Virus genome (UHGV): UHGV-1522688
Direction: 5' to 3' (one strand)
DNA length: 49,863 bases
From: a virus
This document shows, in pieces, positions 152 to 49,863 of this stretch. The first letter of the stretch is position 1, and every line of letters starts with the position of its first letter. Both the position numbers and the translations under genes were made by a program. Below the pieces are notes generated by a model. It had not been told where the DNA came from, searched no databases, and was given only the letters and a program-made list of their open reading frames with translations.

Positions 152-823
152 ATGTGTGGACGTTTTTCACAGTCAATGACGCGTGAAGACTATCTAGCCC
201 TTCTCGCTGAAGAAGTCGAACGAGACATTCCATATGGCCCTGAACCGATCGGACGTTTCAACGTTGCGCCCGGAACCAAAGTTCTGCTACTGAGCGAACG
301 TGATGAGAAACTCCATCTTGATCCAGTTATCTGGGGATACGCCCCCGGGTGGTGGGATAAACCACCACTAATTAATGCACGCTCTGAAACTGCGGCCACC
401 AGCAGAATGTTTAAACCACTCTGGCAGTATGGTCGTGCAATTTGCTTTGCTGATGGATGGTATGAATGGAAAAAGGAAGGTGACAAAAAGCAGCCCTACT
501 TCATTCATCGAGCCGATGGCCAGCCGATATTCATGGCGGCGATCGGCAGAACACCATTCGAACGTGGAGATGAAGCAGAAGGATTCCTGATAGTGACGGC
601 TGCTGCAGACAAAGGGCTGGTAGATATTCACGACAGGCGGCCGCTGGTTCTGTCACCAGAAGCCGCTCGCGAATGGATGAGGCAGGACATTGGAGGGAAA
701 GAAGCTACGGTAATTGCGGCTGACGGTTCCGTGCCGGCTGATAAATTTTCATGGCATGCTGTAATGCGTGCCGTCGGGAATGTTAAGAATCAAGGACCAG
801 AGTTAATAGAAACTATGCGTTGA
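152..823 (+). CDS. yedK: SOS response-associated peptidase YedK (SRAP family, abasic-site processing)
   Basis: 223 aa starting MCGRF (Cys2 nucleophile signature of SRAP/YedK); collinear with enterobacterial YedK as recalled. Confidence 0.9.
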   Translation: MCGRFSQSMTREDYLALLAEEVERDIPYGPEPIGRFNVAPGTKVLLLSERDEKLHLDPVIWGYAPGWWDKPPLINARSETAATSRMFKPLWQYGRAICFADGWYEWKKEGDKKQPYFIHRADGQPIFMAAIGRTPFERGDEAEGFLIVTAAADKGLVDIHDRRPLVLSPEAAREWMRQDIGGKEATVIAADGSVPADKFSWHAVMRAVGNVKNQGPELIETMR

Positions 824-1053: not shown

Positions 1054-2124
1054 ATGCATTATCATACGTCCCTTAAAATAAATCATATTACTGAGAAAAA
1101 AATGTCCAACATTAATTTATTCGATGATGTAGTGCCTTTAGAAAAACAACATCCAATATATACAATGATGAAAGAAGAACGCTACAAACCGGAGAGAGAT
1201 GTAATTAATCAATGGGCAAAAGGATTTCAAGACCGAGACAATAAATTTGCTAAAGAATTTCAAACAAGTTTTGAACCTTGCCTATGGGAATTATATCTTT
1301 TTGCCTATCTGAAAGAATTAGGCTTAAGGAGCGACTTTTCATACGACGCTCCTGACTTCGTCGTCAATGATCCAGATTTTTGCATTGAGGCAACTATTGC
1401 ACTTCCAGCACAAGGAGACCTTGGGGCGCATGGTTTCAGTAAGGAAGATATGCCGAGAGATTTTAATAAATTTAATTCTGAAGCATCTATTCGACTTAGT
1501 AATAGCTTTATATCAAAGGTTAAAAAATTAAGATCGAGATATTCTCTACTTCCTCAATGTAAAGAAAAACCTTTTGTAATCGCCATAGCTTCATTCGACA
1601 GACCTTTTGCACACTTTGCAGCAGCTAGGCCCATACTTGCAACATTATATGGCCTATACCATGATGAAGAAGCAACCATTGAATCAGGGTCAAAGAGTAT
1701 AATTTCTTATAACGTCGATGCTGCAGTAAAAAAAGAAAATGTTAATATAGACATGGGGTTATTCTGCACACCTGAATATTCGGATGTAAGTGCTGTGATT
1801 TATAGTAGTTTAGCTACTTGGGGAAAAGTAAGAGCCCTTGCGGACAACCCTTCTGCTCTAACGATTTATACATCATTTACTCCAAAGGAAAACTCATTAT
1901 TTCCTGAAGTTCATCAAGCCTTAAAAAGTGATTATGTAGAACATCTAGCGGATGGGTTATATATTTTACACAACCCATTTGCCAAGCATCCATTGCCTAA
2001 AGAGACACTAAGTCATCCAAGAATAGCGCAAGGTTATATTGAGCCAGATGGATACGTTAATTTTATAGCGCCAGATGATTTTCTTTTATTGCGTTTTTTA
2101 CAATCGTTAAATTTGAAAGAGTAG
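1054..2124 (+). CDS. hypothetical protein, A+T-rich islet gene 1 (possible PD-(D/E)xK-like nuclease core)
   Basis: 356-aa ORF (alternative start at MSNINLFDD, about 1102); helix then 'DAPDFVVNDPDFCIEATIA' resembles a restriction-endonuclease-like strand motif; no family recognised. Confidence 0.5.
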   Translation: MHYHTSLKINHITEKKMSNINLFDDVVPLEKQHPIYTMMKEERYKPERDVINQWAKGFQDRDNKFAKEFQTSFEPCLWELYLFAYLKELGLRSDFSYDAPDFVVNDPDFCIEATIALPAQGDLGAHGFSKEDMPRDFNKFNSEASIRLSNSFISKVKKLRSRYSLLPQCKEKPFVIAIASFDRPFAHFAAARPILATLYGLYHDEEATIESGSKSIISYNVDAAVKKENVNIDMGLFCTPEYSDVSAVIYSSLATWGKVRALADNPSALTIYTSFTPKENSLFPEVHQALKSDYVEHLADGLYILHNPFAKHPLPKETLSHPRIAQGYIEPDGYVNFIAPDDFLLLRFLQSLNLKE

Positions 2125-2283: not shown

Positions 2284-3132
2284 TTGATTAAAACAGGTCA
2301 TGTATCATCTTCAGAGTCAACATATCGCCAACTGTCTATCATTCCATTGAGGAAAAGTATGTCATCAGAAAATTTTGTCACCTTCTGGCTCGCTAGAGCC
2401 GATCTTCCATACTTTCTTGAACCTCATGAATTTTACGTTTCGGAGGCCAAGCGTAGACTTCTATCGCAGTTTGGCGATTTAGAACAAGAAGCAGAAAGGA
2501 GGGAACAACAGTATTTGGAAGCTACCTCAAAATATTTCGATCCTGATAACGATGATCCAATGGCTGCCTACGAGCAAGCCTACCACGTGGGAATTAATTA
2601 TGTATGGTCGCTTCTGGAGATGCAAAATACCGTGTTGTTGGCATTAACGGCAGGAATGTACCACCAGTTTGATAAAAAACTAAGAGAACACACCATCAAA
2701 GAACTAAGTAACTGGTGCAAAAGAGAATTAATTACTCCCATGATCTGGAATATAACTTTCCATCAGCTTATTGATTTACTCGAATGGATTGGCCTCAAAA
2801 TCAATGGAACCGGATACGGAGAGAGGATCAAAGCCTGTAACTTGGTAGTAAACGTATACAAGCATGGGGACGGGCCTGCGCATCAAACACTATCATTCAA
2901 TCATCCTGAGTACTATCAACACCCTACCGATGTTCGAGGTACGCAGAACATACATGACCATGATGATTTACATGTATCAGAAGAGCAATTTGTAGAGTTT
3001 GCTGACGCAATAACTGAATTCTGGAAAGCAGTTCCAGAGAATTGCTATTACTCAGATCTCAAAGAAGAACCCAAATGGTTGAGTAAAGTCGTAACAAAAT
3101 TCGATAAAAAACAGAAGGGAAATAGGGACTAA
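2284..3132 (+). CDS. hypothetical protein, A+T-rich islet gene 2
   Basis: 282-aa ORF (alternative start MSSENF about 2359) directly downstream of gene 1 on same strand; no recognised family. Confidence 0.5.
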   Translation: MIKTGHVSSSESTYRQLSIIPLRKSMSSENFVTFWLARADLPYFLEPHEFYVSEAKRRLLSQFGDLEQEAERREQQYLEATSKYFDPDNDDPMAAYEQAYHVGINYVWSLLEMQNTVLLALTAGMYHQFDKKLREHTIKELSNWCKRELITPMIWNITFHQLIDLLEWIGLKINGTGYGERIKACNLVVNVYKHGDGPAHQTLSFNHPEYYQHPTDVRGTQNIHDHDDLHVSEEQFVEFADAITEFWKAVPENCYYSDLKEEPKWLSKVVTKFDKKQKGNRD

Positions 3133-3240: not shown

Positions 3241-3290
3241 CCGTCATGGGGTGTCGGGGGTCGGAGGTTCAAATCCTCTCGTGCCGACCA
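3241..3290 (+). other. partial tRNA-Pro (3' ~50 nt incl. T-arm, acceptor 3' strand and CCA); integration-site remnant
   Basis: 'ccgtcatggggtgtcgggggtcggaggttcaaatcctctcgtgccgacca' matches the 3' half of enterobacterial tRNA-Pro(CGG) as recalled; the 5' acceptor strand 'cggcacg' and D-arm are absent upstream. Confidence 0.7.
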
Positions 3291-3303
3291 AAAATCCTCG
3301 AAG

Positions 3304-3330
3304 AACCAGCCTGTTACGGCTGGTTTTTTT
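3304..3330 (+). terminator. rho-independent terminator following tRNA remnant
   Basis: 8-bp stem aaccagcc/ggctggtt with 6-nt loop followed by TTTTT. Confidence 0.55.
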
Positions 3331-3420: not shown

Positions 3421-3810
3421 TCACATCACTGGGCAGTCATCAAACTCCGCGTTCCTGGCATCATTAATGATGTACGTGATAACACCAAATATTGCGTGTG
3501 AAGAATTATAGCCATCACCGTCTTCTGGCAGCACTTCTCTTCTCCCGTTCTCCAGATTTATCAGGTGGGGCTGAGGGTGAGTTCGGTATCGCTTGATCCT
3601 GAATTCCCCATCTATCGCGCATATCAGCAGCGAGCCATCACAGGCTGAAAGCGACGCGTCCACAACAAGTAGTGCCCCCTGGATTATCCCTTCCCTGAAA
3701 TGTGAACACGATGCCCGCATGAAATAAGTCGCTGCGGGCTGGCTGATTAGCTGTTGATCGAGGGAAATCCTTGTTTCAACGTAATCACTGGCAGGTGAAG
3801 GGAAGCCCAT
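3421..3810 (-). CDS. UmuD'-like protein, encoded without the N-terminal arm (begins at the position equivalent to UmuD Gly25)
   Basis: From internal ATG with GGAGG SD: MGFPSPASDYVETRISLDQQLISQPAATYF... aligns with E. coli UmuD residues 25 onward ([29 protein letters not shown]); C-terminal 'AIDGEFRIKRY...FGVITYII' matches UmuD fold; Lys of the Ser-Lys dyad retained, GDSM motif diverged to CSHF. Confidence 0.8.
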   Translation of the reverse strand: MGFPSPASDYVETRISLDQQLISQPAATYFMRASCSHFREGIIQGALLVVDASLSACDGSLLICAIDGEFRIKRYRTHPQPHLINLENGRREVLPEDGDGYNSSHAIFGVITYIINDARNAEFDDCPVM

Positions 3811-3812
3811 GG

Positions 3813-4055
3813 CTATAGTCCTCCGTTTGGATTGAAAAGCTGAAAGGTACGGTTCTCCCCTTCCTGCGTTGATACATCGCGGAATGATGTCACATACCAC
3901 TCGATCCATTCGTTAGCCTGCTTCATCGTCCAGTTCCAGTTAACCTTGCTCAGTTCCTGGACAAACCGCTGTGTGGTGACGGTCTTCCGGCCATTAGGTT
4001 CTTGCTGTATCGAAGCATGCCAGGCCATTTCAATATCGCTGCGTCGTGGCATCAA
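3813..4055 (-). CDS. hypothetical protein, upstream partner of UmuD'-like gene
   Basis: 80-aa ORF ending 2 nt before the UmuD'-like ATG; not UmuC-like. Confidence 0.45.
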   Translation of the reverse strand: MMPRRSDIEMAWHASIQQEPNGRKTVTTQRFVQELSKVNWNWTMKQANEWIEWYVTSFRDVSTQEGENRTFQLFNPNGGL

Positions 4056-4094
4056 TTAACCCCTCTTGAATACCGGATAAAAACACAGTATAAA

Positions 4095-4114
4095 TACTGT
4101 ATATCCATCCAGTA
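4095..4114. promoter_or_regulatory. putative LexA box (SOS operator) in divergent promoter region
   Basis: TACTGTATATCCATCCAGTA: CTGT-N8-CCAG, same variant half-site as the E. coli dinI box as recalled; sits 17 nt upstream of the dinI-like start. Confidence 0.55.
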
Positions 4115-4130
4115 AAGATGACTACAAGAA

Positions 4131-4373
4131 ATGTTCGTGGAACTCGTTTATGACAAAAGGAATTTTGATGGGCTGCCTGGTGCAAAAGATATCATTCTGG
4201 GCGAATTGACCAAGAGGGTTCACCGGATCTTCCCCGATGCTGATGTTCGGGTTAAACCGATGATGACACTGCCGGCGATCAACACTGACGCCAGCAAGCA
4301 TGAGAAGGAACAGATAAGCCGTACTGTTCAGGAAATGTTTGAAGAAGCTGATATGTGGCTGGTTTCAGATTAA
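4131..4373 (+). CDS. DinI-family protein (DNA damage-inducible protein I-like)
   Basis: 80 aa; C-terminal '...EQISRTVQEMFEEADMWLVSD' parallels DinI '...QRISEILQETWESADDWFVSE'. Confidence 0.7.
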   Translation: MFVELVYDKRNFDGLPGAKDIILGELTKRVHRIFPDADVRVKPMMTLPAINTDASKHEKEQISRTVQEMFEEADMWLVSD

Positions 4374-4501
4374 ACACCTTGAACCGTCATATTGCTTAAG
4401 TACAATCCGCCGTGACTGGCAATCATTCAATACTCGCACTATCGAACGTTCGCCAGTCGGCCGCAATCATGCTCTTGCATACGGCGTGGTTGCGGCAACC
4501 G

Positions 4502-6058
4502 TCAATTTTGCTGGCTACCTTTCAGCGTCTCAATCACATTCTTCAGGGAATTGAGTTCAGACATCTGTTCCTTCATCGCTCTGCCCATATAAACCATAGC
4601 GCATGCCATATCGGCCATAATGACATTATTATCAAGGGCAAGGGTATCGTCTTTGAGACCAACCTCAATCTGATGGTCAACATATTCGTTACCGGACTCA
4701 TCCACACCAACAACGTCCTCAAAAACAGGTCCACCAGGCACTATCTTTACGTACTGCGGATCAACTTTAGTCAGATCCTGGGCAATAAGGCCAAAACGCT
4801 GTGTATCCGACCCCTTATACTTAAACATGGTCGGTAACCACTGCATGACACGGTCGAAACTGTCTTTCCCGTCCCGATATTGGATATCTTCTTTTAGATC
4901 GCGGTCTGATGTCGCATTCTTGGCGAACACGTACGATCCCTGCCAGTTTGACCCGGATTCGTTCCATACGTCAGTAGTGATATCACCAGACTGAGGATTG
5001 AATCTGAACATCCTGTGATATCTGGCATCGCCCATAAAATGTAAGACGCCATGTGGCCAGCCATTGGCACCATTAGAAATGAGTCCCAGTGACAGACGAG
5101 TACTCCACCCACCCGATGCAGAAGAACCACCAGAAACGATTGGAGCCCAGCCACCATCATTTCCACCAACAATGGCGGACCAGTAAGGGGTGGTCCATGG
5201 ACCATCAACATCCCCCCAGCCACCCGATCCGCACTGTCCCCAGAAACCACGTGGTGATTGTATAACCCCACCATAACCAGAAAGAAAGTTGAAACGGTAT
5301 GTGTTCGCTCCTGCTCCAAAACTATTCGCGATTAGAGCAATGGCATCCAGATAATTACCCGCACCTCGTATCCCGCCAAACTGATAGAACGAATTCCCCA
5401 TCCACCCCTGCAGCTGGTTCATCATCCAGCCCAGTTCACCATCAACGTTATTCGACGTCAGTAAAATATCCTTCTTGACGCCAGCAGTGCTTTTGACGCC
5501 TGTACCCGACCCACCCGCCACCGAATTGACGCCACGGGTGCCAAGAACACTACCGAACGTAACATCCTGAGAGTTTCCCAAAGTGAGATTATCGCGGGCC
5601 GCATTTTTATCAGGCAGATCGGCCAGGGCCTGGCTTTTCAACAAAGCATTATTGATCTGATCAATAATGCTTTTCCATGATGGTCCTGTAAACTCCGTAT
5701 TGTCAGGAAGCCTGACAGTAATATTGCCGTTCGCAGAGAATAAAAGTTGCCAGTTCTGTTTGTCGTAATTCAGCCCCCGCAGCGCCTCCGTGTTCTGCAC
5801 CACCATTGCGGCAGTAACCATATTCAGCGCCACACGAGGAACAGCTGACCAGGCCGCGCCAGATTGGGTTGGCCCGGTGTAATTGCTGACCAGCGTCAAC
5901 GCTGTACCACTTTCCACGGACTTAACCGGAAGCGTATAGGGAACACCACCGACCGTAACAACAATAAAATCTCCGGCCGCCACCTCAGTGGTAAACGCGG
6001 TCCCGCTGCCAGCGACCGCAGCCGAGTTATTCATCAGGGTTAATGTTCCTGCTGACAT
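4502..6058 (-). CDS. side tail fiber protein with C-terminal intramolecular chaperone (peptidase S74-like) domain
   Basis: 518 aa; Gly/Ser-rich repeats; C-terminal 'SDRDLKEDIQY...RFGLIAQDL...' typical of auto-cleaving chaperone domain of phage fibers. Confidence 0.75.
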   Translation of the reverse strand: MSAGTLTLMNNSAAVAGSGTAFTTEVAAGDFIVVTVGGVPYTLPVKSVESGTALTLVSNYTGPTQSGAAWSAVPRVALNMVTAAMVVQNTEALRGLNYDKQNWQLLFSANGNITVRLPDNTEFTGPSWKSIIDQINNALLKSQALADLPDKNAARDNLTLGNSQDVTFGSVLGTRGVNSVAGGSGTGVKSTAGVKKDILLTSNNVDGELGWMMNQLQGWMGNSFYQFGGIRGAGNYLDAIALIANSFGAGANTYRFNFLSGYGGVIQSPRGFWGQCGSGGWGDVDGPWTTPYWSAIVGGNDGGWAPIVSGGSSASGGWSTRLSLGLISNGANGWPHGVLHFMGDARYHRMFRFNPQSGDITTDVWNESGSNWQGSYVFAKNATSDRDLKEDIQYRDGKDSFDRVMQWLPTMFKYKGSDTQRFGLIAQDLTKVDPQYVKIVPGGPVFEDVVGVDESGNEYVDHQIEVGLKDDTLALDNNVIMADMACAMVYMGRAMKEQMSELNSLKNVIETLKGSQQN

Positions 6059-6071
6059 GGATATCTCCTGA

Positions 6072-6100
6072 ATTAAGATAATAAAAAACCCGCCGGAGCG
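6072..6100. terminator. bidirectional rho-independent terminator
   Basis: stem aacccgc/gcgggtt with loop cgga, flanked by A-run on one side and T-run on the other. Confidence 0.5.
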
Positions 6101-6116
6101 GGTTATTTTTGGTATT

Positions 6117-6356
6117 TCATTGAGGGCAATTCGAACTGGTGAAATTATTTTTATTCACCCATCGCCAGTTAAAGGGATAACCGGCCCTGTACTCAGTCTG
6201 ATTAACAACTTTTTGCACACCGTAAATTTGCACTGACTGGGGCTGTCCACCAAGCACTAACTCAGCCTGACAAACCGGTTTCTGTTTCTCCAGAACAGGT
6301 CCTGAACAGGCTGAAAGCACCAGGCAGACAATAACTGGAATAATTATATTTTTCAT
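6117..6356 (-). CDS. small lipoprotein, possibly Cor-like superinfection-exclusion protein
   Basis: 79 aa; signal peptide with lipobox LSAC; located immediately after tail fiber genes, the usual cor position; function inferred from position only. Confidence 0.45.
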   Translation of the reverse strand: MKNIIIPVIVCLVLSACSGPVLEKQKPVCQAELVLGGQPQSVQIYGVQKVVNQTEYRAGYPFNWRWVNKNNFTSSNCPQ

Positions 6357-6464
6357 TTCGATACCAGAGTTAATTATTTAAACAAAAAATAACCAATGGC
6401 ATTGAATAATAAAAATAGTTTTAATAGATCAATATTCTAAAATTGATCGTTTAAATCGATCAGT

Positions 6465-7139
6465 TTAATCATATGCAGCTGTGTTTATCGCCGTTATCAC
6501 AATTCCACTATTTGTCGTACCGATTGAAGAGCCGCTTGCTGTTGTTGATGTAAGTCCTTTTATTCTCGTTCCCGCACCTTCATTGAAGCAACCTGTACCC
6601 ACATCCACAGACTGAATGATTGGCTGTCCACCAGGTGCCGAACCAGCATGAAGGAGAACAGATCCCAGCCCCATCGGATTTATGGCCCATTTGCCTGCCA
6701 TGTATGTATCAATGTTAAGCCCACCACTTACAGCACCTGGTGAACCAATAGTTGTAAGGTCGCTTAATACCCGGGACTCATTCGTAAGTACCAGTGTCCC
6801 TTCGGCATCCCATATAGCCACCCCCCAGGCAGGAAGCGTAAGCGGATATATGGCAAAAAAATAGGCCTCAAGGACAAAAGCCGATCCCCTGTAATTAGAC
6901 GCATTAACACTGAACGTATTGCCACTTTTTGAAGCTGATATCTTCGCCGGGGCGCTGGTTCGTGCAAATGCAATCCCTCCCTTCTGACCGTCGATAGTAA
7001 CAGACGCCGAAACACTGTTAAAATTCCCCCCAAAAGTTGAGTTTACAGTGACTTTCCGGTAAAGCGTCATTGGTGTGGAATCAGGCGTGATAAAAGGGTT
7101 CCCGTTAGGTAATGAAATCAATGCGCCATATTTAGCCAT
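6465..7139 (-). CDS. hypothetical phage protein (tail-associated by position)
   Basis: 224-aa ORF between J and tail fiber, contiguous with upstream ORF. Confidence 0.5.
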   Translation of the reverse strand: MAKYGALISLPNGNPFITPDSTPMTLYRKVTVNSTFGGNFNSVSASVTIDGQKGGIAFARTSAPAKISASKSGNTFSVNASNYRGSAFVLEAYFFAIYPLTLPAWGVAIWDAEGTLVLTNESRVLSDLTTIGSPGAVSGGLNIDTYMAGKWAINPMGLGSVLLHAGSAPGGQPIIQSVDVGTGCFNEGAGTRIKGLTSTTASGSSIGTTNSGIVITAINTAAYD

Positions 7140-7454
7140 CTACGCAGTCTCCGCAAAAACGATTAACTGCACTTTGACTGCCGGGTAATCATTAATCCCA
7201 TCACTACCTGAAGGCTGTATTGTTATGGTGTTTCCAGATGCAATAATATTTCTTTTATCTGTGTAACTTATTGTCCCTTTATCCTCCAGAGTACCAACCG
7301 CAAAACCGACCTTTAAACCGGGCTCGAGGTTGAACTGGTAGCTTCCCGTTTTCTGACCTAAAGCAAGATCGATGATTCCCACCACGGTTACAGGTTTAAT
7401 GCCATAGTTATTCGGGACACCGTTAGCGTCCCATGTCTGAATTCCCCATGTCAT
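7140..7454 (-). CDS. hypothetical phage protein (tail-associated by position)
   Basis: 104-aa ORF immediately downstream of J. Confidence 0.5.
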   Translation of the reverse strand: MTWGIQTWDANGVPNNYGIKPVTVVGIIDLALGQKTGSYQFNLEPGLKVGFAVGTLEDKGTISYTDKRNIIASGNTITIQPSGSDGINDYPAVKVQLIVFAETA

Positions 7455-10400
7455 CAGAATACCCCTGTTAATTTGCCAATCTGCACGCGGAGAACGCCAT
7501 TGCCATCTTTAACGCTGTAATTCAGATTGGTCATTTTCGTTGCCCCCTCCCCGGCAACAGCCCCATTCATTTCAAACGTTCCGTCTGATTTCATAATGGT
7601 GCCTGTTTGTCCCTGAACATAATTAGCGGAGCGCAGTTCGCCAATTTTTGCCAGAGTGATTTGACTATACTGAATAAAAGCATCGCTGATAAACACCTGA
7701 CCATTAATAGAAGCAAACGGAGAATATTGTGTATCACCGCTGCCACTCATCAGGACGAACTGATTGGCGTTAAAGCCGACACGGGTGACTACCGGCTTAC
7801 CCGCTTCGGCCAGCACGGCAATCGACATCCCGGCGTTATACATCACACCGTTTATTCGAACTCCGGTTTTAAGAGTGTAAATTGCAGATGCCCCGGTCGC
7901 ATCAACCACGGCGGTGAGCTTATCTTCCAGCGCGGCAGTCACATCATTGAACTGCGCCTGCACCTGCGTCGACATTTCAGCCATGGCTTTATCGACCTGC
8001 GCAATGGTCGTTTTAACCACCAGAATATCCGCGCGTACCTCGCCGTACTGCGCCCACTGGTGTTCCACGGTTGCATGGTTGGCCAGCGCGTTCTGCAATG
8101 CGGCTTCGAGATTGGTATCAATGTCGCCAGTCAGGCGGTCACCGTCGGCAGATGTCAGGAAGTCATCAGCAATATCGCCCAGGTAGTCGTCAGCATTCGC
8201 ATTAGATTCACCACGAACCCAGTCGGTCCAGTCACTCTGATTACCAATGCGATCAACCAGACGAGCCCGGTACCAGAACTCCTGACCTGCCTTCAAACCC
8301 AGTTGGGTATATGTGTGTTGAGGATACGGAACTCCTGCAAGCAGCAGAGGATTATCCCCATTTCCGTTTGCTGAATACTGCAGTTCGGTCTGGAGAGTAT
8401 CACCTGTATCCGCCGGAAAGGACCAGTCAGCCTGTATGCCCCAGTTGATTGCTGTGGTGCGCAGACCAACCGGCTTGGGAACATCCCCAGTACGTCCAGT
8501 GAGATGAGTCAGCACAGAAGAGGTCCACAAACTGGACGCTCCACCAGAGTTAATGGCGCGGACTCTCACGAGGTAATCGCCTGAGAAAATCCCGGCGATC
8601 TCTATATTGCGCAAGCCTGTTTCGGGAATGTTGATCCACTCATTATCACCACGTTTCCACTGTGCCTGATACGCGACAATATCCGCCTGAGGTTTCCCGT
8701 TTTTATCTACTGGCGCATCCCAACTCGCAACCATGGTTGCAATACGCTGCCCCTGCCGGACCGAGTCGTAACTGCTAATCGCGATATTCGTGGGCTGGCT
8801 AACCAGGCCTATCGGTAACAGACTAATCGGCGGCGTATCCAGCCGGGCGTTGTTATCAACGGCATCGTACTTAGCCCCGTTGTACTCTGCACCGGTGATA
8901 CTGTAGGTGTTCTCTTCATCGTTAAATGTCAGATTGGTTACACGGAAATACTGGAGGCGCAACTGGCCTGCATCGATAACAAAAATGGCATTAGGTTGTG
9001 GCTCAGCGGTAAAGGCAGTAGCCAGTATCAGTTGCTGGCCGTTAACCGCCTGAATGGTTCTGCTCTCAACGGTACCGCCCAGGGTACGAATCATCAGCGT
9101 ATCACCCGCCACCGCACTCGTGCCGCGATCGGTAGTTACTGACTTCAACCCTGCATCGTAATCAGTAATACGTCCACCATAGACACGCCCAGACAGCCGC
9201 TCATCTGCAAACGCAAATACGGTCCCCGGCACATAAGCGAAGCCATCGAGTCCCGTCTGGACAGTGATAATACGGTCCAGAGAATTGGAGTACACTGCCC
9301 AACCACCCCGGCGCTGAGCTTCGCTTTCACGTGTGCAGCCAATCGCGGTTAGCTGAGTCTGCTTAAACTTGAACTGCTTAACCAGATCGGGAAACATCAC
9401 TGCAGTAGTGCGATCCTGATAGTGGTTATCCGGGTCACTAAAGTTAATCAGCGCTGAGCTATAGCGATTCTTTTCACTGCCGCTGGAATAGGTTGGTTTC
9501 CCGACCACAGAGGCACGGGTGAGGATCTGAAGTTTTGACGTATCCGCAGGCATATCAGAGACAACATTGAACATGTTGTTGCCCCAGAAAGTCATTCCGT
9601 TGAAGCCCGCGGCAATATCTTTAATCACCTGCCAGGCATCAGCCTGGGACTGGATGTAAACGTCAAACATGAAGCGTGGCTCGGTAACGCTTCCGCCTTT
9701 CCCGTCGGGTACCTTCTGGTCGCAGCGCTGGGCGATGCGATAGAGCTCCCACTTATCGAGCATTTCTGGCGTCACGCGGCGCCCAAGACCGAAGCGCGGC
9801 TCAGTCACAACATCGAACCAAATCCACGCCGGGTTATTCGTCCAGCCCCATTTAAACGTCCCGTCCCATGTTCCGCTATAAGTCCGCGCTATTGGATCAT
9901 AGTTCGAAGGGATTCGGATGATGCGCCCCTTCGGCATGCAGGAAATCTTAGGGATGTTGTTGAATGACTTTGCGTTAAAGGACACGTACAGCAGCGCTGT
10001 GTGTGGATATCGTAGGCGAGCATCGATCACCTCAGTAATCGCTTGCACCTGCGTTTTGTTCTGCAGCATCTGGCTGGTGCTGTCATCGGTGTCACGCACC
10101 ACTCGAATTTGCCAGCCAGTGCTGGCTTTGGGAAGATTAATACGGTGGGTTAGTTCATAGAGCGAACTGAGCTTCTCTGTGACGGTTTTAGTCATGACTG
10201 TCGAGTAAGCGCCACCGTCCACCGCAAGGTCAATATGGTACTGAACCGTGGTGCCGACAATATCCCCATCGTTTTCCTGCTGCTGTAACCCAGGGATGCC
10301 AATACGAACCAGCACCGCGTCAATCTGGGTGTTACTCAGTGCGCGGGTCCATGGTGTGGCCTTTGTCAGCGATACGCCAACCGTAGTTTCATTCTCGACT

Positions 10401-10663
10401 GCAGGGAATCCCGGTATTGGTGTCTGTGTCTGTGTGCCAGGCCGGAATTCCCATGACACATTTTCAAAATTCATCGTTCCGTCGGGGTTTCCCAACGGCG
10501 TACCGTCCAGGAATATCCGGGTCGCATCCAGGCCACCAGCAAACTCACCCTCCCCGAGCGCCAGCAGCATGCGGCAGCGCGCCATTGACTGAGCCGAATC
10601 GGGCTGTTCTACAGGTGTATGCTGCTTCTGGCTGCCACCCTTTGCACCAGTGATCACTTCCAT
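7454..10663 (-). CDS. J: host specificity protein J (central tail fiber / tail tip)
   Basis: Start taken at MEVITGAKGGSQKQHTP; long blocks similar to lambda gpJ (e.g. 'IPSNYDP...YSGTWDGTFK', 'DKWELYRIAQRCDQKVPDG'). Confidence 0.9.
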   Translation of the reverse strand: MEVITGAKGGSQKQHTPVEQPDSAQSMARCRMLLALGEGEFAGGLDATRIFLDGTPLGNPDGTMNFENVSWEFRPGTQTQTPIPGFPAVENETTVGVSLTKATPWTRALSNTQIDAVLVRIGIPGLQQQENDGDIVGTTVQYHIDLAVDGGAYSTVMTKTVTEKLSSLYELTHRINLPKASTGWQIRVVRDTDDSTSQMLQNKTQVQAITEVIDARLRYPHTALLYVSFNAKSFNNIPKISCMPKGRIIRIPSNYDPIARTYSGTWDGTFKWGWTNNPAWIWFDVVTEPRFGLGRRVTPEMLDKWELYRIAQRCDQKVPDGKGGSVTEPRFMFDVYIQSQADAWQVIKDIAAGFNGMTFWGNNMFNVVSDMPADTSKLQILTRASVVGKPTYSSGSEKNRYSSALINFSDPDNHYQDRTTAVMFPDLVKQFKFKQTQLTAIGCTRESEAQRRGGWAVYSNSLDRIITVQTGLDGFAYVPGTVFAFADERLSGRVYGGRITDYDAGLKSVTTDRGTSAVAGDTLMIRTLGGTVESRTIQAVNGQQLILATAFTAEPQPNAIFVIDAGQLRLQYFRVTNLTFNDEENTYSITGAEYNGAKYDAVDNNARLDTPPISLLPIGLVSQPTNIAISSYDSVRQGQRIATMVASWDAPVDKNGKPQADIVAYQAQWKRGDNEWINIPETGLRNIEIAGIFSGDYLVRVRAINSGGASSLWTSSVLTHLTGRTGDVPKPVGLRTTAINWGIQADWSFPADTGDTLQTELQYSANGNGDNPLLLAGVPYPQHTYTQLGLKAGQEFWYRARLVDRIGNQSDWTDWVRGESNANADDYLGDIADDFLTSADGDRLTGDIDTNLEAALQNALANHATVEHQWAQYGEVRADILVVKTTIAQVDKAMAEMSTQVQAQFNDVTAALEDKLTAVVDATGASAIYTLKTGVRINGVMYNAGMSIAVLAEAGKPVVTRVGFNANQFVLMSGSGDTQYSPFASINGQVFISDAFIQYSQITLAKIGELRSANYVQGQTGTIMKSDGTFEMNGAVAGEGATKMTNLNYSVKDGNGVLRVQIGKLTGVF

Positions 10664-12825: not shown

Positions 12826-13176
12826 TCAGGCATAGACGCCATAGGCGCGCTTAATCGTGAATGTCAGCTCAGCGAATTTGCTGCTGAGTTGGTTTTTACG
12901 CACCGAATCGGTCACGACGCGATACAGACCCATCTCCTCGCCCGGCGGCGTGATGACGAATGCTTTAACGGTATGTGCCAGAAGGAAGTCACGAACAGTA
13001 TTCACTTCTGAGTCAGCGCCCACATGCTTCATCGGTATCTGAATCGCCGTGGAATTAATGCCGTTCTCAGCCACCTGCTCGTAGCCATCACCAAACTGCG
13101 CCGAGCGCACCGTTTGACTGTATTCGACAGCACCCGCGCCGAGTTGCGAGTGCCAGTTGTAGGTATCAACTGCCAT
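12826..13176 (-). CDS. M: minor tail protein M
   Basis: 116 aa; 'FGDGYEQ' motif as in lambda gpM; position. Confidence 0.75.
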   Translation of the reverse strand: MAVDTYNWHSQLGAGAVEYSQTVRSAQFGDGYEQVAENGINSTAIQIPMKHVGADSEVNTVRDFLLAHTVKAFVITPPGEEMGLYRVVTDSVRKNQLSSKFAELTFTIKRAYGVYA

Positions 13177-13369: not shown

Positions 13370-14983
13370 ATGAATATTGTGCATTATGCAGCCATTGGAG
13401 CTGTAGCTTTCGTAGTTGTTCTAACAATTTTGGTGATAAACATCATTAAATTAAAGTCAGCCAAGGCTGATGCAGCAGAAAAGGCGGCAAAACTTGAGCG
13501 TTACGCGTCAATCACCAATGCTGAAACAGAAGCTGAACGAATCGTGAATGCAGCTAAGCAAACCGCAGAAGAGTTAATTATTGATTCGCAGAATAACCTT
13601 GACGAGGCAAAAGCTGAAGCAGCCAACACTATTGCAGCCAGTGAAAAAGATGCAAGATCTATAACACAGCGTGCGGAGGATATTCTATCAGATGCGCGTT
13701 TAGCAGCTAAGCGAATGAACGCAGAGGCGCTGACCGCTGTAGAAACACAAAGAGTCAAGCGTGCAGAAATTGAAAAACAGATTGATGAATTGCGTAAATC
13801 CTATCGTGAGAAAAAAATCACTTACGATGAGCTGACGGAAGCCCTGTCAATTTATAAAGATGATATGGAATTTGCTGACATGGGGTTCTATGCACCACAC
13901 TTCGATTTTGATACCTCGGCTAGTTTTCAGGATGCGATCAAGGCATGTCGCGAACGGCAAAAAAATCTGCTACGTGACAAAACTGAATTTGGCGCAATAC
14001 ATTGCCCTACTGAATGGACGGTTGGCGGCTCTAAAAGTGAAGGTCGGAAAATGACCACTCGCGGCATTCAGATGACAGCACGTGCATTCAATGGTGAGTG
14101 TGATGCAGCTATTGCAAACTGCACATTTAAAAACGTTTATCAAATGGAGCAAAGAATTTATAAAGCCTTTGATGCCTTGAATAAGATGAATGAGGTTAAC
14201 CAGATTTACATCAATCGTGCTTTTTTAGATTTGAAGCTGGATGAACTTCGACTTACACATGAATATCGTTTGAAAAAACAAGAAGAACGAGAAGAACAAC
14301 GTGAAATCCGCGCTCAGATGGCTGAGGAGAAGCGAGCTCAAGCCGAAATTGATCGTGCACTTCGAGAGGCTGAAGATGAAGAACGCCGCGCCCAAAAAGC
14401 GTTGGATAAAGCCCGAAAAGAAATGGAATCGAAGCTAGCCCAAATGACAGCTGAGCAAGTTGAGAAACACCAAGCGAAGGTATCCGAATTAGAACATGCC
14501 TTAGAAGAGGCATTGTTGAAAGGCCAAAAAGCTCTTTCTATGGCTCAACAAACTAAACGCGGCCACGTGTACGTTATCTCTAATATTGGTTCGTTTGGTG
14601 ATGATGTTTTTAAAATAGGAATGACACGTCGACTTGACCCTCAAGATCGAGTGGATGAACTGGGTAGTGCATCAGTCCCATTCCTGTTCGATGTTCATGC
14701 AATGATTTTCAGTGAAGATGCACCAACAATGGAAAACATGCTCCACCAGCGTTTCAATGAGCAACGCACTAACCTAGTTAATAAGCGTAAAGAGTTTTTC
14801 AATGTAAAATTAAGCGATATCAAAGATGCTGTGTTTGAGATCGCAGGTAAAGATGTAGATTTTATCGAAACAGCAACTGCTCAGCATTATTATGAAACAA
14901 AGGCAATTCGTAAGCAGAAAGCGGATATCATTTCAGTTGTTCCTCAAGAGGAAAAACTACCTAAATTTGCGGACGCAATATAA
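13370..14983 (+). CDS. membrane-anchored coiled-coil protein with DUF4041-like region and C-terminal T5orf172/MUG113 (GIY-YIG-like) domain; candidate defence/exclusion factor
   Basis: 537 aa; N-terminal hydrophobic helix (AIGAVAFVVVLTILVINII); long Ala/Glu/Lys/Arg-rich helical stretches; C-terminal 'GHVYVISNIGSFGDDVFKIGMTRRLDPQDRVDEL...VPF...LHQRFNEQRTNLVNKRKEFF' matches T5orf172 signature as recalled; opposite strand to the tail operon; A+T-rich. Confidence 0.7.
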   Translation: MNIVHYAAIGAVAFVVVLTILVINIIKLKSAKADAAEKAAKLERYASITNAETEAERIVNAAKQTAEELIIDSQNNLDEAKAEAANTIAASEKDARSITQRAEDILSDARLAAKRMNAEALTAVETQRVKRAEIEKQIDELRKSYREKKITYDELTEALSIYKDDMEFADMGFYAPHFDFDTSASFQDAIKACRERQKNLLRDKTEFGAIHCPTEWTVGGSKSEGRKMTTRGIQMTARAFNGECDAAIANCTFKNVYQMEQRIYKAFDALNKMNEVNQIYINRAFLDLKLDELRLTHEYRLKKQEEREEQREIRAQMAEEKRAQAEIDRALREAEDEERRAQKALDKARKEMESKLAQMTAEQVEKHQAKVSELEHALEEALLKGQKALSMAQQTKRGHVYVISNIGSFGDDVFKIGMTRRLDPQDRVDELGSASVPFLFDVHAMIFSEDAPTMENMLHQRFNEQRTNLVNKRKEFFNVKLSDIKDAVFEIAGKDVDFIETATAQHYYETKAIRKQKADIISVVPQEEKLPKFADAI

Positions 14984-34301: not shown

Positions 34302-34991
34302 TCAGTTCGGTTTTGCAAGACTTACATCCAAATTTGTCGCCTTTTGTTGTGAACGTGATCGCGAAACAGAAAGGAGCGCCTGATTATCAAGGTGCACGAA
34401 TTCTTGTTTCATCGCCAGCCAGTGCGGGAGGTAGGTTTCAGTCCAAGTTGGCTTTGATACCCCTACCAGTTGCGCCAGCTGCTGGTACTCGTATGTGCTG
34501 CGCCCTGCTAGTTCTGCTTTCACATCCTGAGCAGCAAGCCAAATTAACGCCTTCAACCGTTCGATGGTTTTACCAGCTATCTTTCGAGACCCCATCTGCG
34601 ACTTGAATTCAGCCCACGCCCACTGAGTAATCAACACCTGACTCTCCCAGCTTACGTTCTCGCTGTAGTTCCACAGTAGCCAGGCCTTCTGGGGTTCTTC
34701 AAGTGACATCAGCGCCCGGCGCCACGATGCGGTGTAGAATTCTACCGGCTGCACCAGGGGAATATGTGAACCCTTGGCATGCGACTGTTTGCCCGGTATT
34801 GGTGGGTTATCCAGCGTAATCATTTTCCCGGTCACTTCATCATACACACGGAGCTTCTTACGTTTAAACGTTCCCGTATCAAACTGGGCGTTCTCAAGCC
34901 ACGCCATCAACTGCCCTTTCGTCGCACCACTTAAATCGGCGGTGGCCACCATCAGCTGCTGGCGCACGTATTCGAGAAATTGAGTGTTCAT
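34302..34991 (-). CDS. Q: late gene antitermination protein Q
   Basis: 229 aa, immediately upstream of lysis cassette region; family assignment by position and size. Confidence 0.7.
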   Translation of the reverse strand: MNTQFLEYVRQQLMVATADLSGATKGQLMAWLENAQFDTGTFKRKKLRVYDEVTGKMITLDNPPIPGKQSHAKGSHIPLVQPVEFYTASWRRALMSLEEPQKAWLLWNYSENVSWESQVLITQWAWAEFKSQMGSRKIAGKTIERLKALIWLAAQDVKAELAGRSTYEYQQLAQLVGVSKPTWTETYLPHWLAMKQEFVHLDNQALLSVSRSRSQQKATNLDVSLAKPN

Positions 34992-38523: not shown

Positions 38524-38928
38524 TTACTTTAATTTATATATTAAACAATCCACAATATCCAAACCATTAACCATACTATTTGAAAGTCGAACTTTGCTAT
38601 TTTCAATAGAGAATGCTCCTTTCATCATTTTATAAATAAAAGCAGACTCTCCTTTAGCTTCGATTGCTTCAAGTGGTATGGAATGGTATTTATTTGATCT
38701 ATTATCTCTATTGATTTGACTTATAAGGCTATAAACGAATGTAGGCCCTTTCTCCTCAAGATCACTTATTACCAAAATATATTTCCAAGAAAACATTTCC
38801 CCATAAAAAAACCACATGGCAGCGGATAAAGCTACTCCTTTCTTCTCTAACTCTTTCATTAGAAATTGGCCAGAATTTTCCATAGAGGTCGTCATTGAGT
38901 GACCTATTACCAGTGACTTCTTACCCAT
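38524..38928 (-). CDS. hypothetical protein (A+T-rich cassette, downstream gene)
   Basis: 134-aa ORF overlapping the upstream gene by 22 nt. Confidence 0.5.
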   Translation of the reverse strand: MGKKSLVIGHSMTTSMENSGQFLMKELEKKGVALSAAMWFFYGEMFSWKYILVISDLEEKGPTFVYSLISQINRDNRSNKYHSIPLEAIEAKGESAFIYKMMKGAFSIENSKVRLSNSMVNGLDIVDCLIYKLK

Positions 38929-48476: not shown

Positions 48477-48677
48477 ATGGATGATATTTTGCTGACGTCA
48501 GACCTGACCAGTCGATACAAAATCTCACGTAAAACCCTTTGGTCATGGCAAAGCACAGACACGATGCCGCGGGGTTTTGCGAAGCCGTTCCCCGCCCCGG
48601 ACTTCCCCGGTAACCCTAACCGCTGGAAGTCGGAGTCAGTCAAAGAGTGGGAAGGTGTGAAACAGCCAATTAACTGA
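48477..48677 (+). CDS. xis: excisionase (AlpA/Xis-family HTH)
   Basis: 66 aa; '[12 protein letters not shown]' HTH typical of AlpA-type; adjacent to integrase. Confidence 0.7.
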
Positions 48678-49863
48678 ACGGCTCACCGATGATGTTTTCA
48701 AGATGGCTCTGCCAAACGTGGAGCCAGTGTTTTTGATCATCGATGTAGTCATGCAGGTTATAGTGCGCCATCACGCCAACCATTTGGTGACCAAGTAACT
48801 TTTCAATCACATGCGGCGGACAGCCAAGTTCTGAAAGATTTGTTGCGATTGTTCTTCTCATATCATGGAGAGACCAGGGCTCCATGCCGGATTCTGACCA
48901 AATATACCTGGCGTAGTTCGAAGCAACTGGCGGATGAACCGGGACGTCTTTAATTTCCCCATCCAATAAGCGCTGTGAAGTGACTAAATGCTTTGTGTTG
49001 ATCTTCTCAAGATGATTTTTTACCAGTCCCACCGCAGCATCAGAAAGAGCCCTTCTCATGTGCACTCGCGTTTTGTAACTTCCAGCAGGAACTATCCATT
49101 CATTTTCATCCAGCTTGAACCATGACCTTTCGCTTAACCGAATCTCTGCCGTCCTACAGCCGGTCAACATAATAAATTTCACAAGAAACACGGACTCTAT
49201 GGACATGCGGTTTTGCAGCCACCGATAAATAGCCACCAGCTCACGATCATCCAAGCGCCGCGTTCTCTTTTTCGGTTTTTGGCCAACGTCAGTGGGTAGC
49301 AATCCCTCGAGCGGATTGGTCGATATTACGCCTCGGTTAATACAGAACCTGAATGAGCGTTTGCACAGCGAAAGCATATAATGAGCCATCACCCTGCTTT
49401 CAATCTGATCAAAAACATCTATCCAGTGCCTTTTTGTCGAATTGTCGACTTTGACGTTTCGCATCGGTTCGGCGATATGCTTGGCAAATACCAACTGATA
49501 ATAACCTGTCTTTGTCAGTTGATTAGCGATGCAGTGTTTCTCGATCCAATAATTGAATGCTTCCGATACGGCCATGGAACCTTCGCGGGTCAATTTCTCC
49601 AGCTTTACTTGCTCTCGGGGATCGAGTCCTTCAGTAAGCCAGATTCTGAATTGCTGACGCCTTTCCCTTGCCTGAGCAATACTCATTGCTGGATAATCGC
49701 CGACATTGAGTTTTACAGCTTTGCCTGCCCATCTGTACCGGTAGAAGAAAGAGACCTTTCCGGCCAGACTGATTCTTGCGTTGAGTCCGTGAGAATCTGA
49801 AATAATTTCGATATCATCGCGTTTCTTGCCAAGGGCCTTCCTGAGCTTTGTGTCAGTGATCAT
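48670..49863 (-). CDS. int: tyrosine integrase (start at or beyond window edge)
   Basis: 397 aa; catalytic-domain motifs '[11 protein letters not shown]', 'LHDMRRT', 'MAHYNLH'; N-terminus 'TDTKLRKA' typical of P4-like integrases. Confidence 0.9.

Follow-up and report, generated by a model that had tools for sequence, protein, structure and literature searches.

An N15/phi80-type host-recognition module with a Cor exclusion lipoprotein and a predicted self-cleaving tail fiber in a lambdoid prophage most likely of Citrobacter

Results

Organization of the cor and tail fiber module

We analysed positions 4,502 to 6,356 of the virus genome UHGV-1522688, a DNA of 49,863 nucleotides that is referred to as a whole as the window and to which all positions relate. 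As a preliminary description had proposed, this stretch carries a gene for a 518-amino-acid tail fiber and a gene for a 79-amino-acid lipoprotein, both on the minus strand (Table 1). In the direction of transcription, a J-like gene is followed by genes for proteins of 104 and 224 amino acids, a spacer of 108 nucleotides, the lipoprotein gene (cor), a second spacer of 58 nucleotides, and the fiber gene. The statement that the fiber is followed by the lipoprotein is thus correct in plus-strand coordinates but not in transcription, where cor and its terminator precede the fiber. The late (tail) operon of an integrated lambdoid prophage has its distal end in this stretch, and its tail module is of the N15/phi80 type. 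The same order is found in genes 21-26 of phage N15 (J, gp22, gp23, cor, a stem-loop terminator, the gp25 fiber, and a umuD-like gene) and, from gp23 through cor and the terminator to the fiber (stf), in phi80; the lipoprotein stands exactly where these two phages carry cor, as had been suggested from its position. Identities to the N15 proteins are 56% for J, 60% for gp22 (the 104-amino-acid protein), 52% for gp23 (the 224-amino-acid protein, also homologous to phi80 gp23), 57% for Cor, and 42% for the fiber.

Table 1. Positions of the features of the module and of its surroundings in the window
Feature	Position	Strand	Remarks
cor, outer-membrane lipoprotein precursor (79 amino acids)	6117..6356	-	signal peptide 1-16, predicted acylated Cys17, mature protein 63 amino acids
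Intrinsic terminator between cor and fiber gene	6077..6104	-	hairpin 6104..6087, then TTTTATTATC
Candidate cor promoter region	6373..6402	-	weak sigma-70-like ATGCCA-18-AATAAT
Conserved three-GATC element, predicted OxyR-binding Dam-sensitive site	6415..6461	-	reads GATCGATTTAAACGATCAATTTTAGAATATTGATCTATTAAAACTAT
Side (lateral) tail fiber gene (518 amino acids)	4502..6058	-	PHROG 1980 'tail fiber protein', E 3e-96
Fiber N-terminal attachment region (residues 1 to ~160)	5579..6058	-	beta domain and long helix
Fiber variable central and distal part (residues 161-383)	4910..5578	-	mosaic
Fiber Peptidase_S74 intramolecular chaperone (residues 384-518)	4505..4909	-	Lys389 codon 4892..4894
224-amino-acid protein, homolog of N15 gp23 and phi80 gp23	6465..7139	-	PHROG 425, E 5e-55
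104-amino-acid protein, homolog of N15 gp22	7140..7454	-	PHROG 557, E 9e-25
J-like central tail fiber / tip attachment protein	7454..10663	-	likely start ATG 10663; listed open reading frame from TTG 10810
Q-like antiterminator	34302..34991	-	E 3e-101
dinI	4131..4373	+	converges on the fiber gene from the opposite strand
umuD-like gene	3421..3909		beyond fiber and dinI

The lipoprotein is a member of the Cor family

The 79-amino-acid protein matched the NCBIfam equivalog NF047972 ('phage exclusion lipoprotein Cor') with 136.7 bits (cutoff 31; E 1.9e-40) and PHROG 1119 (Cor; E 4.3e-26), and it is 57% identical to the Cor of N15 and HK022, 53% to that of phi80, and 97% to an annotated Cor of Citrobacter braakii. 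It had been described as 'cor or lom-type', of which the first designation applies and the second does not. Residues 14-17 form a lipobox (L-S-A-C). By the sorting rule of E. coli, a lipoprotein with serine at position +2 is directed to the outer membrane; residue +2 of Cor is serine, and localisation in the outer membrane is therefore predicted. Three cysteines (Cys17, Cys29, and Cys77) are invariant in alignments of 23 and of 48 homologs, and most positions of an AGYPFNWRW motif are invariant as well, the remainder being at least 90% conserved.

The model of mature Cor (predicted local distance difference test score, pLDDT, 85.5) is a small beta barrel. In a fold search with this model, the T5 lipoprotein Llp (8a60_B) was the sole full-length two-way match (template modeling score, TM, 0.56/0.57 over 60 columns), at rank 10 and with a non-significant E of 0.21, and the matches around its rank were Tudor/chromo-like small barrels. 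Llp contains a Cys11-Cys58 disulfide and has about 20% identity and a terminal disulfide in common with Cor (PMC9586334); the invariant Cys29 and Cys77 of the window protein parallel this disulfide. The Cor proteins of phi80, mEp167, HK022, and T1 and Llp of T5 (8A60) resemble the protein described here as small outer-membrane lipoproteins whose genes adjoin receptor-binding genes. Further common features are a conserved pair of cysteines, one close to either end of the mature chain, and a small beta-barrel fold, which for the window protein is that of a model.

The side tail fiber is mosaic and ends in a Peptidase_S74 domain

The fiber gene is preceded by a ribosome-binding site (AGGAG, 6069..6065), and its product is 42% identical to N15 gp25 across 98% of its length (81% within the first 134 residues) and 93% identical to a 518-amino-acid 'tail fiber domain-containing protein' of C. 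freundii, the representative of an 84-sequence cluster. In comparisons with prophages of Citrobacter, Enterobacter, Kluyvera, and others, conservation is limited to residues 1 to ~160 (58-93% identity). Within this part, residues 1-73 match a 'Distal tail protein gp20' of 199 amino acids (PDB 23gd_B), and positions 1-176 of the fiber family profile match the N-termini of three solved phage depolymerases (7vz3, 7vyv, and 7lzj). Beyond residue ~150 and leaving Citrobacter aside, the fiber is closest to the C-terminal 63-70% of the lateral fibers of the virulent T1-like/T5-like phages vojen, SFP17, CitS1, and FritzSarasin (51-57% identity); compared to N15, the central part of the fiber has been replaced by a module common to such virulent phages, which shows that fiber tips are exchanged between temperate and virulent phages. 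Fibers of this type are alike only at the far N-terminus, which serves attachment, and probably bind variable O-antigen glycans (PMC8594841), and the mosaic structure of the fiber, with a conserved N-terminus and a variable rest, agrees with this view. Residues 161-383 are presumed to be the receptor-binding region of the mature fiber. The AlphaFold model (pLDDT 76.8) shows an N-terminal beta domain with a long helix, a beta-rich middle, and a C-terminal domain with an end helix; block means of pLDDT are 82-91 at residues 1-70, lower beyond, and 76-92 over residues 191-370.

The last 135 residues, at the extreme C-terminus, constitute a Peptidase_S74 domain, as had been suspected from the motif SDRDLKEDIQY. 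Pfam PF13884 aligned from profile position 1 to 58 (of 58) with residues 384-438, well above the gathering score (39.6 bits versus a cutoff of 22; E 6.5e-10). The motif occupies residues 384-394 and begins at Ser384, with the layout T383|S384-x4-K389, i.e., the serine and lysine are placed as in pb1 of T5. In this fiber and 86 relatives, Lys389 is invariant (87/87), and position 384 is serine in 76/87 and cysteine in 11/87. The group with cysteine, in which the lysine is retained, includes N15 gp25, and fibers of this type may represent a Cys-Lys variant of the self-cleaving domain, as judged from the alignment. The fiber family profile also matched the C-terminus of DT57C LtfA (8hqz_d, 956-1074; domain E 5e-9) with serine and lysine aligned. 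The top Foldseek match was T5 pb1 with its chaperone (4uw8), although this match, obtained with a monomer model, was weak. The end helix spans residues 479-517 in the model. T5 pb1 (4UW8), DT57C LtfA, and the CIMCD of K1F endosialidase have in common with the window fiber a C-terminal domain of about 133-135 amino acids, a Thr-Ser-x4-Lys start, and a long end helix. In T5 pb1, the corresponding residues are Thr1263, Ser1264, and Lys1269, as shown by crystal structures and by an S1264A mutant, which remains uncleaved; the serine departs as part of the chaperone, and competition for the receptor is limited to the processed protein (PMC4690869). The cleavage-sensor residues upstream of the serine are an arginine and an aspartate in T5 pb1. 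T5 pb1 differs in its size (1396 versus 518 amino acids) and in that shaft and tip are unrelated in sequence, and the cleavage established for it is a prediction here, with the site placed between T383 and S384.

A conserved terminator separates cor from the fiber gene

The preliminary description had assigned the lipoprotein its own terminator, and this feature proved well conserved. The hairpin (AACCCGC-TCCG-GCGGGTT) has a GC-rich stem of 7 base pairs and is found at the same place in 10/10 related loci, with compensatory changes in the stem (CCCGC/GCGGG, CCTCGC/GCGGGG, and CCCTGC/GCAGGG); in the records of N15 and phi80, a terminator is annotated at the equivalent place. Downstream of cor, the window has only the terminator before the fiber gene, whereas the corresponding spacer is about 200 nucleotides long in N15 and two other loci and there matches the Rfam small RNA STnc100, which is absent from the window. 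The scores for STnc100 are 72.5 bits in N15 (L001 5864-6049) and 59.2 bits in a Pseudocitrobacter prophage (L022 5809-5982), and one viral contig (L119 3018-3491) carries two STnc100 copies that flank a tRNA.

cor also differs in composition from its surroundings: its G+C content is 0.43, and that of the spacer upstream (6357..6464) is 0.22, versus 0.50 in the fiber gene and 0.53 in J. A cor promoter is annotated in the phi80 record, and the column of the cor spacer that aligns with the annotated extended -10 of phi80 (TGGTATTGT) is highly conserved. These features suggest a moron, a separate, AT-richer unit with its own terminator. In the lysogen, cor would be transcribed alone and transcription would stop at the hairpin, and during lytic growth late transcripts antiterminated by Q would pass the hairpin and reach the fiber gene with its good ribosome-binding site.

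A three-GATC element lies upstream of cor

Directly 3' of the stop codon of the 224-amino-acid gene, the spacer upstream of cor reads GATCGATTTAAACGATCAATTTTAGAATATTGATCT (6461..6426, minus strand), which has the form GATCG-N7-CGATCAA-N12-GATCT. Its three GATC sites have their first bases at 6427, 6445, and 6458 (plus strand) and are the sole cluster of three GATC within 40 nucleotides in the window. Read as 15-N7-15 and scored for ATAGnTnnnAnCTAT repeats, the sequence of 37 bases at 6424..6460 reaches 15/20 for the OxyR consensus, and the agn43 site of E. coli (K-12 sequence) reaches 14/20. Only two sites of the window reach at least 15/20, and 15 was reached by 33 of 5000 shuffles of the spacer. 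The second of these sites (38688..38724; 16/20, the best of the window, with one GATC) lies in an AT-rich region inside a 134-amino-acid open reading frame (38524..38928) and was dismissed as a chance match. Two of the GATC sites are 13 base pairs apart inside an OxyR-like half-site, whose sequence TGATCG-N7-CGATCAA equals the half-sites A and C of the P22 gtr region. The following 15-mer (ATCTATTAAAACTAT), after a spacer of 16 nucleotides (17 in gtr), is identical to gtr OxyR(B) at 12/15 positions, and the score of a local alignment of the element region with the P22 gtr regulatory region was reached by 1/2000 shuffles.

The element is present with the same spacing in 9/10 related loci that carry cor, which had been picked by fiber homology and not by the GATC motif, and also in phi80, mEp390, HK225, LAU1, and Fraca. 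An exact-pattern scan of viral contigs returned at least 120 matches, at least 66 of them with a cor start 97-112 nucleotides downstream, and in at least 54 viral contigs the element precedes cargo other than cor. Relative to the promoter and start of cor annotated in phi80, it spans -82 to -37 and is closely followed by a weak -35 and the extended -10. Activators of the LysR type usually sit at such a position relative to their promoters. In HK022 (L157), mEp234 (L162), and mEpX2 (L166), GATC1 has changed to GATT and GATC3 to TATC and the OxyR score is still 15/20; in N15, the element is degenerate. We rejected the idea that the element is an RNA hairpin or the terminator of the upstream gene, since the stem arms are invariant, the loop varies, and neither covariation nor a T-run is seen.

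Behind the element, the cargo other than cor comprises small membrane proteins, further lipoproteins, a family-25-like glycosyltransferase, a secreted TonB-C-like protein, and a Ner-like protein; examples among the contigs L035-L154 are L103/L120 (+107), L131 (+88), L145 (+145), L138/L082, and L057/L132, and a glycosyltransferase-like protein of 250 amino acids is among the products. The element also occurs at the cargo hotspot of P2-like phages between the tail-fiber and sheath genes, before conserved, apparently non-coding stretches in which Rfam found no match. In the virulent T1-like/Dhillonvirus phages JMPW2 (L158) and KarlBarth (L159) and in ES18 (L160), the gene at the position of cor (annotated as cor in JMPW2 and ES18 and as hypothetical in KarlBarth) runs counter to the tail genes, on the other strand, and its upstream region is unrelated and has no GATC sites; the gene has thus come under different control in phages of different lifestyles.

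Is the element a switch or a module boundary?

GATC pairs within OxyR half-sites have a known function: in P22 gtr, OxyR was shown experimentally to bind these half-sites unless they are methylated (PMC2909390). The element upstream of cor resembles those of P22 gtrABC, agn43 (flu), and Mu mom in the GATC pair 13 base pairs apart that flanks a 15-mer OxyR half-site, in a further half-site about three helical turns off, and in its place upstream of a prophage-borne cell-surface gene (PMC2909390). If it works in the same way, occupancy by OxyR would be blocked by Dam methylation, and cor may be heritably ON or OFF in lysogens. We regard phase-variable expression of cor as a plausible lead from the sequence. 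A wider proposal is possible yet doubtful: an OxyR/Dam switch would control cor here, in phi80, and in many further temperate phages of enterobacteria and would split their lysogens, the same cassette would drive other surface cargo, and the HK022-type forms would be locked. There are differences from the known systems: gtr has a third half-site that overlaps the promoter, whereas the window element has three GATCs and two half-sites only, and no third, promoter-overlapping half-site was recognised downstream of 6415; in agn43, the first base of the site is where the isrC/flu leader transcript is annotated to start, whereas the element, by the phi80 annotation, lies upstream of the promoter. 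A literature search found no paper that joins cor with OxyR or Dam, and none with cor, OxyR, GATC, and FhuA, although its coverage was partial and a prior description is possible.

Quite possible, if not quite probable, is another explanation, in which the element is a conserved linker at a module boundary that serves the recombinational exchange of cargo, or the operator of another protein, and cor is expressed constitutively from its moron promoter, which is the classical view. The element is located at exact gene junctions (0-4 nucleotides past the upstream stop codon, at times sharing the TGA), and the genes that follow it in lambdoid, P2-like, and other contigs are many and unrelated, as would suit a linker. 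N15, HK022, mEp234, and mEpX2 retain a single GATC, the HK022 record annotates cor as a phage-exclusion moron, and the missing counterpart of the promoter-overlapping gtr OxyR(C) half-site points in the same direction. However, the conserved positions are those of the OxyR half-site as it occurs in gtr OxyR(A) and OxyR(C) (PMC2909390), and the likeness to gtr OxyR(B) and the consensus score above that of agn43 also speak for OxyR. A host factor would account for the occurrence of the element in unrelated types of phages. The loss of GATCs by point changes at an unchanged score in the HK022-type elements is as expected of a locked switch, and these variants may be natural locked forms of the OxyR/Dam switch, judging from their sequences.

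Prophage context and other cargo

The J-like protein matched the Pfam families FNIII-A_GpJ, Phage-tail_3, and Phage_Tail_Tip and aligned with PHROG 31 from residue 50 on, and its C-terminal 248 amino acids are 78-81% identical to N15 gp21 and HK225 J. Homologs of the 104- and 224-amino-acid proteins occur in phi80, mEp, T1-like, and Dhillonvirus phages and, for the latter protein, also in Klebsiella phages; both genes occur together with cor in 10/10 cor-carrying related loci (which were fetched via the fiber). The 224-amino-acid gene is part of a putative receptor-binding locus 3' of J. No solved structural relative was found for either protein, and their role in receptor binding therefore rests on inference from the literature.

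On the same strand, upstream of this module, the window contains tail, head, and lysis genes, the Q-like antiterminator, and ninB/ninG, and beyond them CII, a repressor, and an integrase (48670..49863), and from this gene content it is essentially a single lambdoid prophage. Past the fiber, dinI is inserted on the opposite strand in comparison with N15. At ~3250..3330 (plus strand), a tRNA 3' fragment that consists of T-arm and acceptor end (GGAGGTTCAAATCCTCTCGTGCCGACCA) precedes a terminator hairpin. The fragment is probably the att-site duplicate at the prophage boundary, although neither ARAGORN nor Rfam called it; N15 is a linear plasmid, whereas the window phage is integrated next to this fragment. 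RNA genes were not found anywhere in the window by Rfam (at gathering thresholds) or ARAGORN. The host of the prophage is most likely Citrobacter, from which the nearest proteins come (C. freundii for the fiber and C. braakii for Cor). When near-identical DNA was sought for 4000..7500 among phages and in E. coli genomes, the dinI region alone gave matches, so cor and the fiber gene are without a close sequenced relative in those collections.

Further genes of the window were noted in passing. Between tail gene M (12826..13176) and the tape-measure region, a 537-amino-acid gene on the opposite strand (13370..14983, plus; G+C 0.41-0.43) contains the Pfam domains DUF4041 and T5orf172/MUG113 and matched PADLOC PD-Lambda-1 (E 5e-201); by sequence it resembles a defence gene and would be a moron inside the tail operon. 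Just outside the prophage end are two plus-strand genes of low G+C (0.36-0.40), at 1054..2124 and 2284..3132; the former matched PADLOC PD-T7-5 (E 4e-102), and the latter had no match in Pfam or PADLOC. A gene of the SRAP/YedK type lies at 152..823.

Discussion

We consider it highly probable that the locus is a host-recognition module of the N15/phi80 type in which a side tail fiber trims itself by means of its S74 domain and Cor, encoded as a moron, blocks the receptor of the phage; the action of the three-GATC element as an OxyR/Dam switch is a less certain extra step within this explanation. The interpretation given in the preliminary description is supported, and the two profile searches suggested in it, for Peptidase_S74 and for Cor, both gave matches. 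Several points weigh against our explanation: the Cor-Llp fold match reaches a TM of only 0.56 and is not significant, no convincing sigma-70 consensus promoter for cor was found in the window, where matches are weak, and degenerate forms of the element suffice for N15 and HK022. In addition, as the host differs from E. coli, a TonB-dependent transporter other than the one favoured below could serve as receptor.

According to Uc-Mass 2004, as cited in a preprint (bioRxiv 10.64898/2026.03.26.714494), Cor proteins inactivate FhuA; the mechanism is described there as unsolved (bioRxiv 10.64898/2026.03.26.714494). Cor of the window would be lipidated at Cys17 and reach the outer membrane, on whose periplasmic side it would inactivate the terminal receptor of its own phage, most likely FhuA, as do the Cor proteins of phi80, mEp167, and T1 and, as a structural parallel, Llp; the lysogen would thereby be resistant to FhuA-dependent phages, and by analogy with phi80 and mEp167 transport through FhuA would be blocked as well. 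FhuA is the most likely target because homologs of the 224-amino-acid protein are found in phages of the phi80/T1 type, which use FhuA according to the literature, and because the C-terminus of J is about 80% identical to those of N15 and HK225. N15 itself is presumably FhuA-dependent. Alternatively, J tip, small proteins, and cor may have diverged together and Cor may block another receptor, e.g., another TonB-dependent transporter of Citrobacter. In the literature, loci of this kind 3' of J are regarded as the actual receptor-binding genes and include a cognate exclusion gene, and in small siphophages the alleles of this locus map to FhuA, BtuB, YncD, LptD, and LamB (PMC8594841). Small exclusion proteins comparable to Cor are known for further receptors, e.g., Rtp45 for LptD. 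With identities of just 53-57% between Cor and the proteins of E. coli phages and of 52-60% between the two small proteins and their N15 counterparts, a change of receptor is conceivable. Such a change appears unlikely, however, in view of the strong match to the Cor equivalog, the similarity of the J C-terminus to that of N15, and the presence among the relatives of the 224-amino-acid protein of the FhuA user phi80 (next to mEp, T1-like, and Klebsiella phages with unchecked receptors).

In the proposed sequence of events, the fiber trimerises with the aid of its last 135 residues, which would cleave themselves off at Thr383/Ser384 as in T5 pb1 and K1F endosialidase, and the release of the chaperone would expose the receptor-binding tip; the mature fiber would then probably bind a surface glycan reversibly, while J and the two small proteins engage the terminal receptor. 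That the C-terminal domain is instead retained without autoproteolysis, or that the fiber gene is the inactive remnant of a defective prophage, is very improbable, given the intact reading frame of the same length as in the C. freundii relative, the Thr-Ser-x4-Lys motif with its lysine invariant throughout the family, and a prophage that keeps integrase, repressor, Q, lysis, and a full set of tail genes, even though the monomer model is of low confidence around residues 382-394.

The fiber and cor module is nothing new in principle, and proteins nearly identical to its products already bear names in public annotations of Citrobacter. It clearly exemplifies N15/phi80-type host recognition in a Citrobacter prophage. 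The unexpected part is the conserved GATC/OxyR-like element upstream of cor. If it works like those of gtr and agn43, receptor blocking by prophages would be a form of bet-hedging and not a constant trait, with lysogen lineages that are either receptor-blocked (phage-resistant and probably without ferrichrome uptake) or receptor-open. This would bear on the trade-off of lysogens between iron uptake and phage resistance, on the escape from phage therapy, and on the reading of exclusion assays with lysogens of the phi80 type. The element would, moreover, amount to a regulatory cassette that is portable between the cargo genes of prophages and that, in those of the lambdoid and P2-like types, would also drive surface-modifying genes for a glycosyltransferase, other lipoproteins, and a secreted TonB-C-like protein.

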